Source: a virus
Taxonomy: Duplodnaviria > Heunggongvirae > Uroviricota > Caudoviricetes
Length of the DNA stretch: 14,561 nt
Direction: 5' to 3' (one strand)
IMG/VR virus record: IMGVR_UViG_2534682108_000011
Shown in pieces: positions 4,186 to 14,561 of the stretch; positions within the stretch are counted from its first letter, which is position 1; each line of letters opens with the position of its first letter. The notes under the pieces are model-generated. The model was not told the origin of the DNA. It saw only the letters and a program-made list of their open reading frames with translations, and did not search any database. A program made the translations under genes and the position numbers.

Positions 4186-4520
4186 TTTTCCGCGCCCTCA
4201 CGACAAAGAATTTCAAGGCGTGTCCTGGCGGCATCCGGCAGCGGCTGCCCGATGATATTCAGTACACGCCCCGCCAGCGGCCCCGTACTGACCTTTATCC
4301 GGCTGGTGGCGTTGATGTCCTTCCGGTACCGTATCCAGATCCTTACGGTACCAATCGCCAGCTCTGCACCCGATGAAATGGCCTCCTTGCTGCTGATCAT
4401 GTTCACGCTTGCCCAGAGTGTGTGACCGTCCTCCCACGTTTCGAGTATTTCGCCGGTTATATCCCTGGTCTGTTTCAGGGTCTGAATCGTTACCCTGTCA
4501 CGCAGTCGCCCTATGTTCAT
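4182..4520 (-). CDS. Head-tail adaptor / head-closure protein (about 112 aa from the MNIGRLRDRVTIQ start)
   Basis: MNIGRLRDRVTIQ is the family-typical start. ATG at 4520 abuts the portal stop (4517); the longer ORF-track start at 4562 would overlap the portal by 46 nt. Confidence 0.7.
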   Translation of the reverse strand: MNIGRLRDRVTIQTLKQTRDITGEILETWEDGHTLWASVNMISSKEAISSGAELAIGTVRIWIRYRKDINATSRIKVSTGPLAGRVLNIIGQPLPDAARTRLEILCREGAEK

Positions 4521-5728
4521 TCCGGTTTTTCTCCCTCGCTGATTTTTACTTCCTGTTTCCATGCCTGGCTGAACTCATCACCACCATCACGCGGGGACAG
4601 CCCTTCACGTTCGCGGGCTTCGTTCGGGCACATAACGCCGGATTTGATGCCGCGTTCATAGGTGGCAAAGCGTTCGCCAGGTGTGGCCCGTAACAGGTCC
4701 GCGCTGTCAAACTCCACCTGATACCGGATACCAGGTACAGGCGAGGCCACCAGCAGGGCGTTTTTTATCTGCTGCTCAAAGTTCGCCAGCCACGGGCGCA
4801 TCGTCATAGTGAGAAATGCGCGGCTTGCCTCGCTGAAATTGCTGTAGGTGCTGTTGCTGTATTCCTGCAAAAAAATCGGCGAGACGTTGAACATTCGGGC
4901 GATGTCTTCAATGGTGAAGCGACGGGAGGCCAGCCATTCAGCATCCTGATTACTCATGCCCAGCTGCTGATAGCTCATACCCCCTTCAAGGATGGGCGTT
5001 TTTCCGGCGTTTCTGGCCCCTTTGTAGCGTTCCAGTGCGGCTAATGCCTGTTTGCCTTTCACGCCGTCCAGCCATTCGCCTGACGTGATAACCCCTGCCG
5101 CCATCATGCCATCACGCATCACGCTCGCGCCGTGGCGTTGTTGGGCCAGCCCAAGCCCCAGCGATTCGCGGCAGATGGTTACAGGTGAGCGCCCCATAAA
5201 ACCGTCATCCGTGGAGTAACGAAGGTGGAGAACCTCCCACGGTAAATAGTTGCGGGTGTTTCCGGTGTAGGCGTCAGTGATGCAGTAGCGCCAGTTGTGT
5301 TCGCCTGTCTGCTCCACGTTCACCGACTGCGGCGGGTAAGGATGTAAAGCCACCGGAAAACCATCACGCCCCCACTGAATCACCGCATAAGCATTACCGT
5401 TTAACAGGCAGTGGCGGATCATCATTCGCTTAAACTGGTAGGGAGTCTGCCACGCGTTCGGGCGCTCGTTGAGGATGTGATCGACCGGATGAGAATCAAG
5501 CCACTCTCGGGCCTCCTTCCCCTTCTCATTGCGTACCAGGTACAGGTAACACGGCATGGTAGCCACCGCCTCAGAGATGACCGTGACGGCGTTCATGACG
5601 GCGGGCAGTGATTCCGCTGTCCCCGATGATACGTACTCACCCGACCCCGTGTTCGATGTGCCGGCCAGCGCCATAAATTCATCCAGCGTCATGCTGCGCT
5701 GCTCTTTTTTTCTTCTGAAAGGCCACAT
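4517..5728 (-). CDS. Portal protein, HK97 family (403 aa)
   Basis: Size, position between protease and adaptor, and overall sequence character of HK97-type portals. Confidence 0.85.
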   Translation of the reverse strand: MWPFRRKKEQRSMTLDEFMALAGTSNTGSGEYVSSGTAESLPAVMNAVTVISEAVATMPCYLYLVRNEKGKEAREWLDSHPVDHILNERPNAWQTPYQFKRMMIRHCLLNGNAYAVIQWGRDGFPVALHPYPPQSVNVEQTGEHNWRYCITDAYTGNTRNYLPWEVLHLRYSTDDGFMGRSPVTICRESLGLGLAQQRHGASVMRDGMMAAGVITSGEWLDGVKGKQALAALERYKGARNAGKTPILEGGMSYQQLGMSNQDAEWLASRRFTIEDIARMFNVSPIFLQEYSNSTYSNFSEASRAFLTMTMRPWLANFEQQIKNALLVASPVPGIRYQVEFDSADLLRATPGERFATYERGIKSGVMCPNEAREREGLSPRDGGDEFSQAWKQEVKISEGEKPE

Positions 5729-8068: not shown

Positions 8069-8479
8069 TCAGAACGGAATACCGTCACCGTAAGGGTCAT
8101 CGCCTCCCGCTGGTGGCTGATTACCCTGTGTGCCTGTGGTTTTGCGTCTGTTCCCGCCAGGAAGTGCCGCACGGGCACTGATTACGCTGTCTGCAATAAC
8201 CTGATAACCCTGCCGCGTTTCCCCATTCTGTCCGGTCCACTGGCTGACCTGCATCGTGCCGGATACGCTGGCAACGTCGCCTTTTTGATGTTTAGCCAGG
8301 AAGTCGGCCTGCTTACCAAATGCGATGACCGATAGCCATAACGTCGCCTGCCCATCCTGCGCCTGACTACATGGCAGCGATACCGCCATACGCGCCAGCG
8401 TCATCGGTGTACCCTTGCTGGTCTGTTTTACCTGCGGGTCGTCCACCAGCCGCCCGTAAGCTGCTATCTGTGCTGTCAT
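8069..8479 (-). CDS. ssb: Single-stranded DNA-binding protein (136 aa)
   Basis: OB-fold-like core, Gly/Pro/Gln-rich linker and acidic C-terminal tail ending DDPYGDGIPF (compare canonical SSB ending DDDIPF). Confidence 0.8.
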   Translation of the reverse strand: MTAQIAAYGRLVDDPQVKQTSKGTPMTLARMAVSLPCSQAQDGQATLWLSVIAFGKQADFLAKHQKGDVASVSGTMQVSQWTGQNGETRQGYQVIADSVISARAALPGGNRRKTTGTQGNQPPAGGDDPYGDGIPF

Positions 8480-8754
8480 GATTCCACCTCTCCGGTTTTA
8501 ACGTTGATGGTTGTTACCTGTTCCGCTTCGGCAATCTCCCGCTCTGTCAGCGTGGCAAAATTTGCCGCCGTCGTGGTCATGAATGCGCTTATCAGTTCGG
8601 GATGTGCTTTCGCGTATCCTTCCCCCGCGTGGCGGTCTATCGTTCTGATTGCCACCTTTAAAGCGTGCTCTGTCATGTCTAACGCGCGATATTTCGGTTC
8701 TGTTCTGTCTCTGCGTTTTTTGAGTGATTTATTAAATTTCCCTGAAGTGTGCAT
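8476..8754 (-). CDS. Hypothetical protein (92 aa)
   Basis: ORF with a GAGGGGG SD-like sequence upstream; stop overlaps the ssb start. No family recognised. Confidence 0.45.
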   Translation of the reverse strand: MHTSGKFNKSLKKRRDRTEPKYRALDMTEHALKVAIRTIDRHAGEGYAKAHPELISAFMTTTAANFATLTEREIAEAEQVTTINVKTGEVES

Positions 8755-8802
8755 ATTTATTTTTACCCCCTCGTTTAAAAAGTTTTGAGTTGTGCCTCCC
8801 CT

Positions 8803-9028
8803 TGTCTACCTTATCTACCTTAGTGGCCCTCATACCAGTAATGGCGCGGCTTTCAGCGGGGTAGAGTGCTTTTATCCACTATCTACCCCGTGTCTACCTC
8901 CCTGTCTGATTCAGGTAAAATCAGGTAGAGAGGGTAGATAGTGGGTAGACAGTAAAAAAAGGCTATCTACCTAACTTAATGCACTGAATTAAATGTATTT
9001 TTCTTTACTCAGGTAGACAGGGTAGACA
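8803..9028. repeat. Iteron cluster, putative replication origin: at least 10 copies of TCTACC / GGTAGA in both orientations, flanking an A/T-rich segment (about 8950-9010)
   Basis: Copies at 8803-8810, 8812-8819, 8859-8865, 8881-8887, 8891-8898, 8924-8930, 8933-8940, 8944-8951, 8964-8971, 9012-9019, 9021-9028. Ends 15 bp downstream of the primase stop. Confidence 0.7.
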
Positions 9029-9042
9029 GCAATTACAAAAAA

Positions 9043-10797
9043 TTATAAAAACGCGTCGCACTCGTCTGTTGTTATTGCGTTAGTCTGCGTTACTCCCTTA
9101 ACTTTCCGCGTAATATATTCATGTCCGTAAACTTTCGCGGCTGGCTTCATAGCCTTGCCAAAGTCATTTACGTTTAGCGGTTTGCTCCTGCCTGCGTACG
9201 CCATAAACGCCAGATAGACGCGGTAAAGGCTGTTTCTGGTCGTGTACTTCACTGAATCGCCACCGCCGCCCATCATCAGGCCGCGTGCTTCCTCCAGAAA
9301 ATTCAGGAACTGGCAAAACTCAATAACCGGATCCGTCTGTTGCTTTATTGCCAGAGCTTCATCACCGTCACGCTGTTCCAGTAGTAAAGCCCGTGCCTTC
9401 TCAGGGTCGGTAAAGTTCGCCAGCAATCGGCGGATAATGACAGGGATTTCAGCCGCGATCTTTTCCGGTAGCTCCCTGTCTTTTTCGGCCTCACTGACGA
9501 TATTGTCGAAACGGAAAATCACGCGACGACGTGCCACACCTCCGGCCCGTTCGGTGAATATCATCGGGTTATTGTTGGTCGCCAGCACCACCGCCCTGAT
9601 TACCGCCGTGAAACGCTTTTCGTATTTCGGGTTAATTTCCACGGGGTCACCGCCCGTGATTTTCTTGATGCCCGTTCCTTCGCCTGTATATTTCGGCTGG
9701 TCAGCCAGGACGATAAGACGACTCCCGACAACCTGCGCACGTCCACCAGCATCATCAAGCGATGTCATTTCAGCGCTTACCGTGTTCTGTTTCCCTGCCA
9801 GAAGGCTGGCTATGTGTGTGAATGTACTTTTACCGCTCCCGCCGTCTCCGGTGGCCTCAATAAACATCTGCCAGTCGTACCGGTTCGCCATAATCATGTA
9901 CAGCGCGGCACATATACGCATCATCTTGCGCGGGTCTTTTCCGGCTGCGTGCTCAAGCCATTTATGAAAGTTTGGCGCGTTATCGCGGATGTTCTCCCCT
10001 GGTGCTGGTGGCGTGTACTCAATGCCGTTGTGCGTGGTGATCCAGTTCTCCGGCGTGTGCGGGGAAAATTCCCCCGTTTTCAGGTCAAGCGCACCATTGG
10101 CGAACGGCAACAAATCGCCGGACGGCTCGCCCATTGGTTCGGCAATAACTTTTAACGCTTCCACGGCGTTATTGATTACGCGCTTGCTGAAAGTGGCCCT
10201 GTGCTCTGAATAGATCGCCACCATTTCGCGGCTAAGTTCCATTGTGCTGACCGGACACCATACCCCGCCGCGCCATACGTGAACGATTTCACTTTCAGGA
10301 TGTACGCAAACGCCATCAAAGCGATCGGCAAGCAGCTGCGCGCGCTCACTGTCCGCCATCTGCGAAAGTTGCGCCTTTTGCTTTACCGGAAGCTCAATGA
10401 CCAGACCATCAGAAAGATTCTGGCGCTCACGGGCCAGATATTCGCGCCAGTTCTCCACCTTCTGACCGTGCATACCATCAGGGTAAAAATTTGCATCCTG
10501 TACGCCTGCCGCCGCCAGCTTCTGACCAATCGCCTTTATCATTACTGGCGCAAGATATCCGGCCCTGAATATGCGCACGGATTTTCTGCCTTCCGGCACA
10601 ATTTGCAGCTTATCCAGTTCGGATAACTGCTGCTCCCCAAGCCACACAGGAGGCTCATTATCTCCGGCCATACGCGCGTCATGTTCCTGCCATTGTTTTG
10701 CGTGTGACCAGGCATCACTACCCGCAAAAATAATGACTTCTGTTTCTTTGTGTTTTATGCCGCGTGACTGCTGTTTTACGTTCGGTGCCAGTTTCAT
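9043..10797 (-). CDS. Replication initiator: DNA primase with C-terminal P-loop NTPase/helicase domain (584 aa)
   Basis: Walker A GDGGSGKST in the C-terminal half; size and layout resemble P4-alpha-family primase-helicases; origin iterons immediately downstream. Confidence 0.8.
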   Translation of the reverse strand: MKLAPNVKQQSRGIKHKETEVIIFAGSDAWSHAKQWQEHDARMAGDNEPPVWLGEQQLSELDKLQIVPEGRKSVRIFRAGYLAPVMIKAIGQKLAAAGVQDANFYPDGMHGQKVENWREYLARERQNLSDGLVIELPVKQKAQLSQMADSERAQLLADRFDGVCVHPESEIVHVWRGGVWCPVSTMELSREMVAIYSEHRATFSKRVINNAVEALKVIAEPMGEPSGDLLPFANGALDLKTGEFSPHTPENWITTHNGIEYTPPAPGENIRDNAPNFHKWLEHAAGKDPRKMMRICAALYMIMANRYDWQMFIEATGDGGSGKSTFTHIASLLAGKQNTVSAEMTSLDDAGGRAQVVGSRLIVLADQPKYTGEGTGIKKITGGDPVEINPKYEKRFTAVIRAVVLATNNNPMIFTERAGGVARRRVIFRFDNIVSEAEKDRELPEKIAAEIPVIIRRLLANFTDPEKARALLLEQRDGDEALAIKQQTDPVIEFCQFLNFLEEARGLMMGGGGDSVKYTTRNSLYRVYLAFMAYAGRSKPLNVNDFGKAMKPAAKVYGHEYITRKVKGVTQTNAITTDECDAFL

Positions 10798-11332: not shown

Positions 11333-11547
11333 ATTAATCCCCGTCCGTCGTTTTTCTTAAAATAACCTCTGTCACGAAATCAGCATAATCGGCGACGATA
11401 TTCAGTACATCAAGCCCCGTTGATTTATATTCTCTCGTGGAAAGTAAGAAAAAAGCCGCTCTAATAAGCTCTGGCATTGACGAAAGCGCATCAGCCGCAT
11501 CATCAGGAACGCCGGAAAATTACTGTTTCAGGGAATTAAAACGATCA

Positions 11548-11787
11548 TCACGCATAACCCCCCCCATTTTCACAATCAGCAATCAGGATGGCTTTAGCCT
11601 CATTCAGCGCCATATCCGCACTAAGTTGCATAACCGCCAGCGAATGAGGAACGAAAGCCCCTGCATATTCTGTTTCACTGGTGGCGTGCTTATGCGCCAT
11701 GTCAGCAATAACAGAAATATCAATAAGCGCGTGCATCAGCGTAGTGAGCGCGGCGGCTGCTGCGTCCGGTGTGGTTTTATTGCACAT
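11548..11787 (-). CDS. Hypothetical protein (79 aa from the MCNKTTPD start)
   Basis: Strong SD AGGAGG (complement of 11794-11799) 6 nt upstream of ATG 11787..11785; the ORF track's longer start lacks an SD. Confidence 0.5.
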   Translation of the reverse strand: MCNKTTPDAAAAALTTLMHALIDISVIADMAHKHATSETEYAGAFVPHSLAVMQLSADMALNEAKAILIADCENGGGYA

Positions 11788-11977
11788 GGCACACCTCCTG
11801 ACGAATACGGGCGGCGAATACAGCAACACAACCGGACGGGCAACGGCTACGCGCTTCGCGTTCCGTCCAGGCGGTTACGTGGATTATTTGAGATTCTCCG
11901 GCACTCAGTGCCAGAAAACGCCACACAAAGGCCGTTTGTGTGTGTACAAGGTGTGGTATATGATTTACGGCAACCAT
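11777..11977 (-). CDS. Possible small leader ORF (66 aa), or an untranslated leader with hairpins
   Basis: ATG 11977..11975 preceded by AGGAG at 5-nt spacing; its stop overlaps the next gene's ATG. It also contains a hairpin (11922-11942) plus U-rich tract, so it may be a regulatory leader instead. Confidence 0.25.
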   Translation of the reverse strand: MVAVNHIPHLVHTQTAFVWRFLALSAGESQIIHVTAWTEREARSRCPSGCVAVFAARIRQEVCHVQ

Positions 11978-12064
11978 AACGGCTCCTAGTTTACGTTGTT
12001 GGTTAGACGCCCCGTATGTGTTCCCAGCACTGCGGGGCGTTGATTTTTGTGTAATGGCAAGTAC

Positions 12065-12110
12065 AATAGTAATTACCATGTAGGTATAGTAATGAAGGGT
12101 AACTACCATG
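12065..12110. promoter_or_regulatory. Divergent promoter/operator region: direct repeats GTAA(T/C)TACCATG (12069-12080, 12099-12110) and ATAGTAAT (12065-12072, 12086-12093)
   Basis: Repeats read directly; the second copy overlaps the Arc-like start codon; TATAGT -10-like hexamer at 12084-12089. Confidence 0.4.
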
Positions 12111-12281
12111 TCAACACCATTAGAAAAACGTTCGCCTCCATACCAAATGCGATTACCGGAAGACTTCAGAGCGCAGCTAGAAGAAGCAGCTAAGGCCGAT
12201 GGCGACACATCTTTAGCCACTTGGATTAAACGCGTTCTCCGCAAAGAATTACAGCAACGCGGCATAGAACCCAAAGGATAA
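12108..12281 (+). CDS. Arc/MetJ-type ribbon-helix-helix DNA-binding protein (57 aa)
   Basis: MSTPLEKRSPPYQMRLPEDFRAQLEEAAKADGDTSLATWIKRVLRKELQQRGIEPKG: beta-strand (YQMRLPED), helix, DGDTS loop, helix pattern of Arc/CopG proteins. Below the ORF-track cutoff; found by manual translation. Confidence 0.6.
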   Translation: MSTPLEKRSPPYQMRLPEDFRAQLEEAAKADGDTSLATWIKRVLRKELQQRGIEPKG

Positions 12282-12323
12282 AAACTATCAGCGCCGTGGT
12301 GTGAGGTATTACGGCGCATTGCT

Positions 12324-12512
12324 ATGCAGGACAACACAATGACCGATAAAGAATTGACCAAAACATTATCACCGGCACGGAAAAGACGGCGCAGAAAGAT
12401 AGAACATGAATCAGAAAGATTCGCGCCATGTGCTTTTGCCCTTGAGCAATTCCTTAAAGAGTACAGGGAAAAGCGCTCATTGCAGGTATGGCAACGAACT
12501 GAACCAGACTGA
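12324..12512 (+). CDS. Hypothetical small basic protein (62 aa; may start at the internal Met MTDKEL)
   Basis: ORF downstream of the RHH gene on the same strand, followed by a strong terminator; KRRRRK basic patch. No family recognised. Confidence 0.4.
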   Translation: MQDNTMTDKELTKTLSPARKRRRRKIEHESERFAPCAFALEQFLKEYREKRSLQVWQRTEPD

Positions 12513-12607
12513 TTGCATTGCCCACCAGCCTGATAGCGGCTATCATCCCCGTGCTTATGTTTGGGATCACACACACAAACGGCGCAGCGGGTTATCTGTT
12601 CAGAAAG

Positions 12608-12636
12608 GCGGCTCCATTTCGGGGCCGCTTTTTTTA
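12608..12636 (+). terminator. Rho-independent terminator of the plus-strand RHH cassette
   Basis: 8-bp stem GCGGCTCC/GGGGCCGC (one G-U pair), loop ATTTC, followed by TTTTTTT. Confidence 0.7.
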
Positions 12637-12781
12637 TGCCTGAAAAACCCCAATTTTGTGGTTTTCCAGTCTCACCAGGGCGAACGAATCCCCGCCCACG
12701 TTCTGGCGTATATTCAATCTTCATGGTTATAGCTCTGTGTTCAGATGATTGATGTGTGGCGGCTGTGTGCCGCCAGCGTGA

Positions 12782-13343: not shown

Positions 13344-14561
13344 TTATTTTCTTCTGGCTACGGGTAGCGTGGTTACGTTTTCATGTGTTCCCGCCAGTAT
13401 CCCTAACCGCTCCGTCCACATATCCAGCGCATTGCGTTTAGCATCCAGATAACGGGAATGATTATAAACTCGCTGCATTCCTGGCATCTGGTGGCCTGTA
13501 AGCTGCTCCACGACATGCGGATCAACGCCTAAATCGTTCAGCATGGTTGTAAAGGTGCGCCGGATGTCATGCAGTGACCAGTGAGGATGATTAAGCCTCC
13601 TGTGCGCTAATCTTCCATACTGCGATACGCTGGCCTCCTGTTTCACTGCCCCCAGCAATAAGCCCGTGTGCCTGTTCTGCTCCACCAGCTGCGTGACGAA
13701 CGGCAGGATCGCTTCCGGTATGGGCCGGAATATTGCGACCTTCGTTTTGCTGTGCTCCTTCGGAACGGTCCATAGCATTTCCGTAAAATCCCACTCCCCG
13801 ATCTCCGATAACCTCAGTTCTACCGTTCTGGCTCCGAAGACAATCAGGAGGCGGATTAACGCGACGTAGTAAGGGGAAAATATTTTTTTATCCAGCGCCT
13901 GCAATAACTCGCCCAGTTCTTTGGTGCTTAAGACACGTTCGCTTATATCCGGTTTTTTCCCAACGTCCGCCACGTTCAGATCGTCCAGAACGTTGCTGAT
14001 TGCATAGCGCCGCCTACGGCAGAACTTAAGCGCCTGTTTGCACGCCTGTAGCACGAATCCGGCAGTAACAGGCGTTCGCTTTGCCACCTGGTCAAAACAG
14101 GCCAGCCAGTGCCGTAGCTCGCATTTATCTAGCGGCATAGCACCAATCTGCTGTATTACGTGATTATTAAGTCGCCTTTTCAGGGCGATATAATCCACGC
14201 GGTTTTCCTTTACGTAATACTCAAGCCAGTAGGTGAGCGCATCGCCAACCGTTACGGGCTTTAACGCTTCCTGTACGGTGTAATTCATCTCATGACGTGG
14301 ATTTTTCCCCTCAGCCAGCCATGCGCGGCACTGGGCGGCTTTTTCCCTGGCTGCTTTCAGACTCAGATCAGGATAATTTCCCAGCTTAATACGTTCCGGT
14401 CGTGTCTCTCTTCCCGTTCCTGCCCTGTAAGTGAAATACCAGGTTAATTTCCCTGATGTTAAATATTTCACGCTCAGATTTCCGCCATCGCTATAAAACG
14501 TGTTTTTCTCCGCTGGCTTACCATGAAGTTTCCTTAGCAATGTGTCGCTCAGTTTGTTCAT
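13344..14561 (-). CDS. int: Tyrosine site-specific integrase, P4-like (405 aa), start codon at the window edge
   Basis: N-terminal arm-binding-type domain (KLSDTLLRKLHGKPAEKNTFYSDGGNLSVKYLTSGKLTWYFTYR), C-terminal catalytic region with HDIRRTFTT and conserved His/Tyr context. Confidence 0.9.
   Translation of the reverse strand: MNKLSDTLLRKLHGKPAEKNTFYSDGGNLSVKYLTSGKLTWYFTYRAGTGRETRPERIKLGNYPDLSLKAAREKAAQCRAWLAEGKNPRHEMNYTVQEALKPVTVGDALTYWLEYYVKENRVDYIALKRRLNNHVIQQIGAMPLDKCELRHWLACFDQVAKRTPVTAGFVLQACKQALKFCRRRRYAISNVLDDLNVADVGKKPDISERVLSTKELGELLQALDKKIFSPYYVALIRLLIVFGARTVELRLSEIGEWDFTEMLWTVPKEHSKTKVAIFRPIPEAILPFVTQLVEQNRHTGLLLGAVKQEASVSQYGRLAHRRLNHPHWSLHDIRRTFTTMLNDLGVDPHVVEQLTGHQMPGMQRVYNHSRYLDAKRNALDMWTERLGILAGTHENVTTLPVARRK

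Follow-up and report, generated by a model that had tools for sequence, protein, structure and literature searches.

What is the function of the dense array of short repeats found at positions 8803-9028 of IMGVR_UViG_2534682108_000011, a 14,561-nt stretch recorded as Caudoviricetes DNA and called here, at its full length, the window? A previous reading of the DNA, made from the letters alone (the sequence-only reading), had taken this region for an iteron-rich replication origin placed downstream of a primase-helicase gene, as in the phage-inducible chromosomal islands (PICIs) and in P4-like replicons. The analyses described below point in the same direction, and a probability of roughly 90% is assigned to 8803-9028 being the vegetative replication origin of a PICI, here a capsid-forming PICI of Escherichia coli. 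The window origin is an ordinary and already known feature, of which a near-identical copy was published and tested in 2018, and the finding is mainly one of correct annotation. Nevertheless, as far as the literature seen extends, three of its details are not found there: the mirror symmetry of the repeats at 8915.5, a motif in the initiator-distal spacer and the doubtful primase domain of the initiator.

The published copy belongs to EcCICFT073. The 401-bp origin region of the window was 94% identical to that of E. coli CFT073, whose intergenic region carries the same 11 repeats at identical positions, and the initiator and its EcCICFT073 counterpart shared 99-100% identity in each of the three regions. 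The CFT073 locus contains int, an AlpA-type regulator, the initiator, ssb, perC and homologues of capsid and decoration genes, the last two being named c1499 and c1500 of EcCICFT073 (Fillol-Salom et al. 2018, PMC6092414). It was reported that the origin of Gram-negative PICIs corresponds to the region directly 3′ of the initiator gene, and that a thermosensitive plasmid carrying the EcCICFT073 initiator gene together with its ori was maintained in DH5alpha at the restrictive temperature with no helper phage (PMC6092414). The plasmid with a mutated initiator yielded no colonies and was not maintained, and deletion of ori gave significantly fewer colonies (plasmids pJP2027-2029; PMC6092414).

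The window shares with EcCICFT073 the gene order initiator-ori-ORF-ssb-perC (ORF, open reading frame), and the position of the array, its iterons and its A/T-rich region fit the published description. The pri/rep-ori layout of PICIs that had been proposed is therefore borne out by an array lying right after the initiator stop and by the match to EcCICFT073 at both the DNA and the protein level. In fact, the sequence features by which a PICI origin is recognized were all observed: a location 3′ of the initiator gene, opposed iterons around an A/T-rich region, homology to a characterised member and an island context with int, alpA and unidirectional minus-strand genes, no tail or lysis family being found among the window proteins. 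The two islands differ in that the window has a full HK97-type head and terminase module where EcCICFT073 has only c1499 and c1500, and in that the CFT073 island lies between phoQ and roxA, whereas the closest matches to the window are located at tqsA.

The repeats are also far more abundant than expected. The hexamer GGTAGA/TCTACC occurs 12 times in the window, with 11 of the 12 copies concentrated within 8805-9026 (222 bp) and the sole remaining one placed within int at 13819; in dinucleotide-preserving shuffles of the full window (n=200), 3.38 +/- 1.83 copies were found per whole window and none of the 200 reached 12. Read on the plus strand, the array comprises five TCTACC (8805, 8814, 8882, 8893 and 8966) and six GGTAGA (8860, 8924, 8933, 8944, 9012 and 9021), in line with the at least ten iterons in both orientations that had been claimed, and its outermost 8-mers, TGTCTACC and GGTAGACA, fall exactly on the limits 8803 and 9028. 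The distance from the initiator stop to the array is 14 nt (8-mer) or 16 nt (hexamer), close to the 15 bp given earlier, and the A/T-rich segment said to be flanked by the repeats was found as well, in an off-centre position. When all copies are put in one orientation, the extended consensus is R-GGTAGA-Y-A-G, the repeat reading TGTCTACC or TATCTACC, and adjacent repeats are 9 or 11 bp apart, that is, about one helical turn. Moreover, 10 of the 11 repeat positions are exact mirror images around 8915.5, a score of 10 against a best of 8 across 20,000 random placements. A chance or low-complexity repeat was ruled out by the shuffles together with this simulation.

Followed along the direction of transcription, the array consists of two repeats, a 40-bp spacer, one inverted repeat, 16 bp, three repeats and a 25-bp centre, beyond which come two inverted repeats, 16 bp, one repeat, a second 40-bp spacer and two inverted repeats. 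The centre holds a twelfth site, present in the window as the decayed copy TGTCTGA and kept with a single mismatch in the LR50 variant. The first 40-bp spacer, which separates the initiator-proximal pair from the remaining array, is among the top 0.5% of window 40-mers by A+T, and its counterparts in UTME3, Serratia and Morganella present 78-89% A+T. The distal spacer contains a 21-bp non-repeat motif, CAGTAATGGCGCGGCTTTCAG, at 8836-8856, which is kept in all eight GGTAGA-type origins while the surrounding spacer columns diverge, and which is absent from the PICI origins of other repeat types examined. This motif was considered as a binding site for the N-terminal domain of the initiator and discarded, because DUF927-, RepA- and APEC17-type islands carry the domain and not the motif. 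A DnaA-box-like 9-mer, TTATCCACT, was also observed between two repeats (8872-8880), only in the window and CFT073 variants; in P4, a perfect TTATCCACA is found at 4281-4289, just outside the annotated crr (4291-4590). As other variants do not conserve TTATCCACT, this box was dropped as a part of the mechanism.

Conservation is concentrated on the repeats. In an alignment of the intergenic region of eight E. coli variants, 48 of the 66 repeat columns were invariant, compared with 33 of the 156 other columns within the array (Fisher p=6.5e-13), and the mean pairwise identity was 0.89 in repeat columns versus 0.56 in the others. The same architecture built from another repeat was found in Serratia aquatilis, whose initiator is 53% identical to that of the window and whose TGTTCAC repeats are arranged as >> 39 bp AT-rich < 13 >>> 18 << > 39 <<, the distal 39-bp spacer being GC-richer, as in the window; in Morganella morganii the repeat is TGTTCAT. 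Similarly, other E. coli PICIs carry another initiator body in the corresponding place, each followed directly past its stop codon by an array of its own, with 11 copies of TAACCCGCA for the DUF927-type, six of AAAGTGAG for the RepA-type and nine of CTGTTCACC for the APEC17-type. A separate array for each initiator type is, as judged from these sequences, the pattern expected for cognate initiator-origin pairs.

The initiator is composed of an N-terminal domain of about 140 aa, a D5_N plus superfamily 3 (SF3)-type helicase core and a C-terminal winged-helix origin-binding domain. Its residues 141-579 align with residues 324-762 of P4 alpha (40% identity over 440 aa, E=7e-113), and the helicase core matches PriRep (7ola) of the Staphylococcus aureus pathogenicity island (SaPI) SaPI5 with E=4e-15. 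The C-terminal domain was predicted from its match to PDB 1ka8, that is, P4 alpha residues 671-770, reported by Yeo et al. 2002 as the winged-helix origin-binding domain of that protein. In this domain, identity amounts to 45-53% among the four TGTTCA-type initiators (P4, Serratia, Morganella and APEC17) and to only 30-35% between TGTTCA-type and GGTAGA-type initiators, whereas in the helicase core the Serratia and Morganella proteins are the nearest to the window protein (57-61%). Because domain and core identities differ in this manner, the binding domain groups by repeat type and not by helicase ancestry; residues 488-579 are likely the reader of the repeats, and repeat type appears to track the winged-helix domain across four origin types. 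Within the GGTAGA group, two flank subtypes, GGTAGA-YAG and GGTAGA-GGG(CTTTT), go together with a pair of substitutions in the predicted recognition region (NVNDFGKAM versus NVAEFSKAM), and these subtypes may represent incipient specificity variants or may just reflect linkage.

Table 1. Coordinates of the origin elements, the initiator and the adjacent genes in the window
Feature	Position	Strand	Evidence
Whole origin array, 11 exact GGTAGA/TCTACC repeats in mirror-symmetric positions	8803..9028	.	Repeat count; 94% identity with the tested EcCICFT073 ori region
Initiator-proximal GGTAGA pair (9012 and 9021), 9-bp phasing	9012..9026	+	Invariant in 8/8 E. coli variants
A/T-rich spacer, 40 bp, candidate DNA-unwinding element	8972..9011	.	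77.5% A+T
Single inverted repeat (TCTACC on + strand) closing the A/T-rich spacer	8966..8971	-	Repeat list, 8-variant alignment
Inner GGTAGA triplet (8924, 8933 and 8944), 9- and 11-bp phasing	8924..8949	+	Repeat list, 8-variant alignment
Central 25-bp spacer with symmetry centre (~8915), inverted repeat TCTGATT/AATCAGG and decayed repeat TGTCTGA	8899..8923	.	
Inner TCTACC pair (8882 and 8893), 11-bp phasing	8882..8898	-	Repeat list, 8-variant alignment
Single repeat GGTAGA, mirror partner of 8966-8971	8860..8865	+	Invariant in 8 variants
Initiator-distal spacer, 40 bp, 42.5% A+T	8820..8859	.	Mirror image of the A/T-rich spacer
Distal TCTACC pair (8805 and 8814), 9-bp phasing	8805..8819	-	Repeat list, 8-variant alignment
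Conserved leader and ribosome-binding region of the next gene, AAAACTTTTTAAACGAGGGGGTAAAAATAAAT	8755..8786	-	Near-invariant alignment block; outside the repeat array
Initiator gene ('pri-rep'), 584 aa	9043..10797	-	Pfam D5_N, DUF5906, Pox_D5; TIGR01613; 40% identity to P4 alpha
Predicted origin-binding winged-helix domain, codons 488-579	9061..9336	-	PDB 1ka8 match, E=7e-7
TOPRIM-like N-terminal domain, codons 1-140, without canonical Glu and DxD	10378..10797	-	Not homologous to the P4 alpha primase domain
92-aa ORF, PHROG 1231	8476..8754	-	Between origin and ssb in 11/11 E. coli PICI loci examined
Island SSB	8069..8479	-	Pfam SSB 4e-17; TIGR00621; conserved synteny

Several points weigh against the interpretation of the array as the replication origin. 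The deletion of ori in EcCICFT073 was reported to have left significantly fewer colonies, not to have abolished them (PMC6092414), and the functional evidence suggesting an origin in the window comes through homology to that island. The A/T-rich spacer is off-centre and other stretches of the window are less stable, so that its designation as the melting site is a guess. The co-variation of binding domain and repeat type hangs on one switch of repeat type and is based on few lineages, because a wider contig scan for relatives yielded three loci only; furthermore, the end of the gene and the origin are physically adjacent, and linkage alone could contribute to such co-variation. Finally, the GGTAGA-GGG subtype shows a looser mirror symmetry.

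Other functions were also considered for the repeats. The array fills the intergenic region before the next gene and is followed by a conserved leader, and iteron-plasmid initiators often autoregulate through their own repeats, all of which would suit an operator or promoter that mainly controls the transcription of an ORF92-ssb-perC-capsid operon and has a secondary role in replication. However, a consensus scan of the gene strand revealed no sigma-70-like promoter or terminator above chance, and the genes follow one another closely in a single direction, as would suit read-through from upstream. Considering also that 11 sites over 226 bp with an A/T-rich spacer resemble an origin, and that the replication phenotype of the homologue is direct, a mainly transcriptional role seems very unlikely, although an operator could coexist with origin function. 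The presence in the island of its own HNH, TerS and TerL genes brings in another candidate, a cos or pac signal for the small terminase, as packaging sites can hold repeated terminase-binding motifs; nevertheless, the same array, with at least 94% identity, is present in two classical PICIs (L001 and L002) that have no TerS, TerL or HNH and whose capsid module is another one. Repeat type follows initiator type instead of the packaging module, and the array is placed about 5.6 kb from terS, leaving a negligible chance for a packaging signal.

The kinship of the initiator with P4 alpha suggests one more possibility, since in P4 the cluster immediately 3′ of alpha is crr, with the true ori located about 4.5 kb away: the array could be a crr-like cis-acting replication enhancer, bound by the initiator while synthesis starts elsewhere in the island. 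Such an arrangement is highly unlikely, as no second repeat cluster comparable to the P4 ori and crr pair was found in the 14,561-bp window, where the only other GGTAGA is the isolated copy in int, and as plasmid maintenance needed no more of EcCICFT073 than a fragment with the initiator gene and the region downstream of it (PMC6092414). A known RNA family was also discarded, Rfam returning only sub-threshold miRNA-hairpin matches that reflect the palindrome.

Taking the array as the origin of the island, replication could proceed as follows. Upon induction, the 584-aa initiator would be made from the gene just upstream, and its C-terminal winged-helix domain would bind the R-GGTAGA-YAG repeats, which are spaced one helical turn apart in mirror-image groups. 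The SF3-type helicase core would then assemble on the DNA as a self-loading ring, probably as two head-to-head rings because the repeat positions are mirror-symmetric, and the duplex would open at the 40-bp A/T-rich spacer. The host polymerase would subsequently carry out replication, probably with the participation of the island single-stranded DNA-binding protein (SSB) and with priming by host DnaG, the latter being probable because the initiator has no recognisable active primase. This scheme was drawn from the SaPI Rep proteins, self-loading helicases that use a C-terminal winged-helix domain for iteron binding (PMC9371898), from P4 alpha and, by analogy, from the initiators of SV40 and papillomaviruses; for the window we infer the binding domain, the double-ring assembly, the melting site and the primer source.

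The 'primase-helicase' name given to the initiator by the sequence-only reading applies only in part: the helicase and origin-binding parts match P4 alpha, and the P4 primase domain is absent. Residues 1-140 of the initiator gave no alignment with residues 1-323 of P4 alpha, and this N-terminal domain had zero matches in Pfam, even at E<=10. In addition, TIGR01613 'primase_Cterm', from which the NCBI name originates, spans residues 229-495, which correspond to the helicase. Therefore, the 'primase' annotation was probably inherited from the helicase part of P4 alpha, not from its primase domain, and host DnaG may be the one to prime. Assigned by strand register and not by superposition, the TOPRIM Glu and DxD sites would be occupied by the invariant Ala25 and by Arg75 and Phe77.

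The same N-terminal domain, with 62-82% identity, heads the DUF927- and RepA-type initiators, and DNA matches to it occur in 1729 of 5426 E. coli genomes. Because initiators of these other types carry it, the domain is best regarded as a shared module unrelated to origin specificity. Two 233-aa database proteins, P0034 and P0036, consist of this domain joined to SSB; the helicase, the origin and the 92-aa ORF have apparently been lost from the islands encoding them, which would presumably be incapable of replication.

These elements can be brought together in a tentative proposal, which as a whole is considered rather improbable. The 12 sites of the GGTAGA-type origin would form a nested palindrome (2-1-3 | 3-1-2), placing two opposed helicase rings, with the proximal 40-bp arm melting and the GC-richer distal arm, through its 21-bp motif, serving a second factor or a priming signal. 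The initiator would have no primase activity, and its degenerate TOPRIM-like N-terminal domain, common to four unrelated PICI initiator bodies, would act as an adaptor recruiting host DnaG or the island SSB.

In the wider context of the window, all convincing genes lie on the minus strand, and they encode a tyrosine integrase, AlpA, a DUF4222 protein, the initiator, the 92-aa ORF, SSB and PerC, followed by a head and packaging set comprising an HK97-type major capsid protein, prohead protease, portal, head-completion protein, connector, HNH, TerS and TerL (Pfam Phage_capsid, Peptidase_S78, Phage_portal, Phage_HCP, Phage_connect_1, HNH, Terminase_4 and TerL). Because this gene set fits the description of the capsid-forming PICI family (bioRxiv 10.1101/2022.09.08.507074), with a PICI backbone, its own capsid, head and terminase genes and no tail genes, the window is assigned by gene content to a capsid-forming PICI of E. 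coli. The island SSB probably belongs to the replication module. It ends in ...GDGIPF, a tip similar to that of E. coli SSB, its ORF and the 92-aa ORF share an ATGA overlap, and both follow the origin in 11 of 11 loci; the two products may be accessory replication proteins, and the SSB tip could recruit host partners. A 315-aa ORF at 11777-12724 had no family match, and related islands have Icd-like pseudogenes and a YlcI/YnfO gene at this place; this ORF (region 11400-12750) is probably a decayed regulatory region and not a real gene.

E. coli O157:H16 strain Res13-Lact-PEA12-26 carries the entire window in its chromosome at 100% identity, and 155 complete E. coli genomes contain 80% or more of it, the closest matching records showing the island integrated at tqsA. 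The 401-bp region around the array was found in 509 of 5426 complete E. coli genomes, on the chromosome every time, and no phage record carrying the replicon was matched. A natural plasmid with this replicon was also discarded, since the only full plasmid match is the island with chromosomal flanks: CP088587.1 (1-32560), deposited as the circular 32.5-kb plasmid pD17EC0246-3, carries the same island at tqsA with about 9 kb of chromosomal genes per side (mlc...mdtJ; pntBA, ydgH). Either a segment of chromosome was mis-binned, or the record captures DNA amplified by in-situ replication from the island origin.

The initiator-plus-origin cassette is not confined to islands with their own head genes, as the classical PICIs L001 and L002 carry it next to lambda-like capsid and decoration genes. 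As judged from these comparisons, modules have been exchanged between classical and capsid-forming PICIs, with a junction near ssb/perC, and the array travels with the initiator and not with the packaging genes. The small added value of the present analysis lies in one initiator-plus-origin cassette common to both kinds of PICI, in the repeat type that tracks the winged-helix domain and in the probable source of the 'primase' annotation. Replication specificity in this satellite island, which about one tenth of complete E. coli genomes contain, is set by the origin and lets the island amplify without a helper phage once induced, as already established for the EcCICFT073 module.

Among the known replication systems, P4 was the one invoked from the outset, and the likeness is partial. 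It stands as regards the initiator, whose helicase and origin-binding domains are homologous to those of alpha, and as regards the 8-bp sites in both orientations, their 9-11 bp phasing and a repeat cluster directly 3′ of the gene; the type 1 repeat of P4, TGTTCACC, shares six of eight bases with TGTCTACC of the window. It fails in that P4 requires two clusters, ori and crr, 4.5 kb apart, where the window has one, in the core repeat sequence, the type 1 iteron itself not being found in the array, and in the primase domain of alpha (residues 1 to ~320), which has no counterpart in the window protein and leaves the 'primase' label unsupported. The TGTTCAC(C) repeat is indeed used, as in P4, by the APEC17-type E. 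coli PICI and by Serratia.

The origins of SaPIbov1, SaPI1 and SaPI5 are likewise placed directly 3′ of rep and served by a helicase initiator with a C-terminal winged-helix reader, and they contain 6-12 penta- or hexanucleotide iterons in opposed groups around an A/T-rich region (PMC9371898). The SaPI5 PriRep has 797 aa and is described as a putative primase fused to Rep (PMC9371898), whereas the window protein has only the 140-aa N-terminal domain. There is no DNA similarity between the SaPI origins and the window, and the A/T-rich region, roughly central in SaPIs, is off-centre in the window, where this arm is mirrored by a GC-richer spacer with a conserved motif.

Iteron plasmids such as pPS10, RK2, R6K, F and P1 also combine repeated initiator sites with an adjacent A/T-rich unwinding element and replicon-specific initiation. 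They rely on direct repeats of 17-22 bp, a non-helicase winged-helix Rep and host DnaA, DnaB and DnaC, whereas the repeats of the window are 6-10 bp long and occur in both orientations, and its initiator is itself an SF3-type helicase; a classical origin of this class, with direct 17-22 bp iterons, a non-helicase Rep and DnaA boxes, was thus not recognized here. In SV40 and papillomaviruses, the initiators large T and E1 are SF3 helicases that act on palindromic short repeats beside A/T-rich DNA and form two head-to-head rings. These are eukaryotic viruses whose origin-binding fold is unrelated to that of the window protein and located N-terminal to the helicase, homology being claimed for the ATPase core only; even so, their origins provide the best analogy for the mirror symmetry of the window array.
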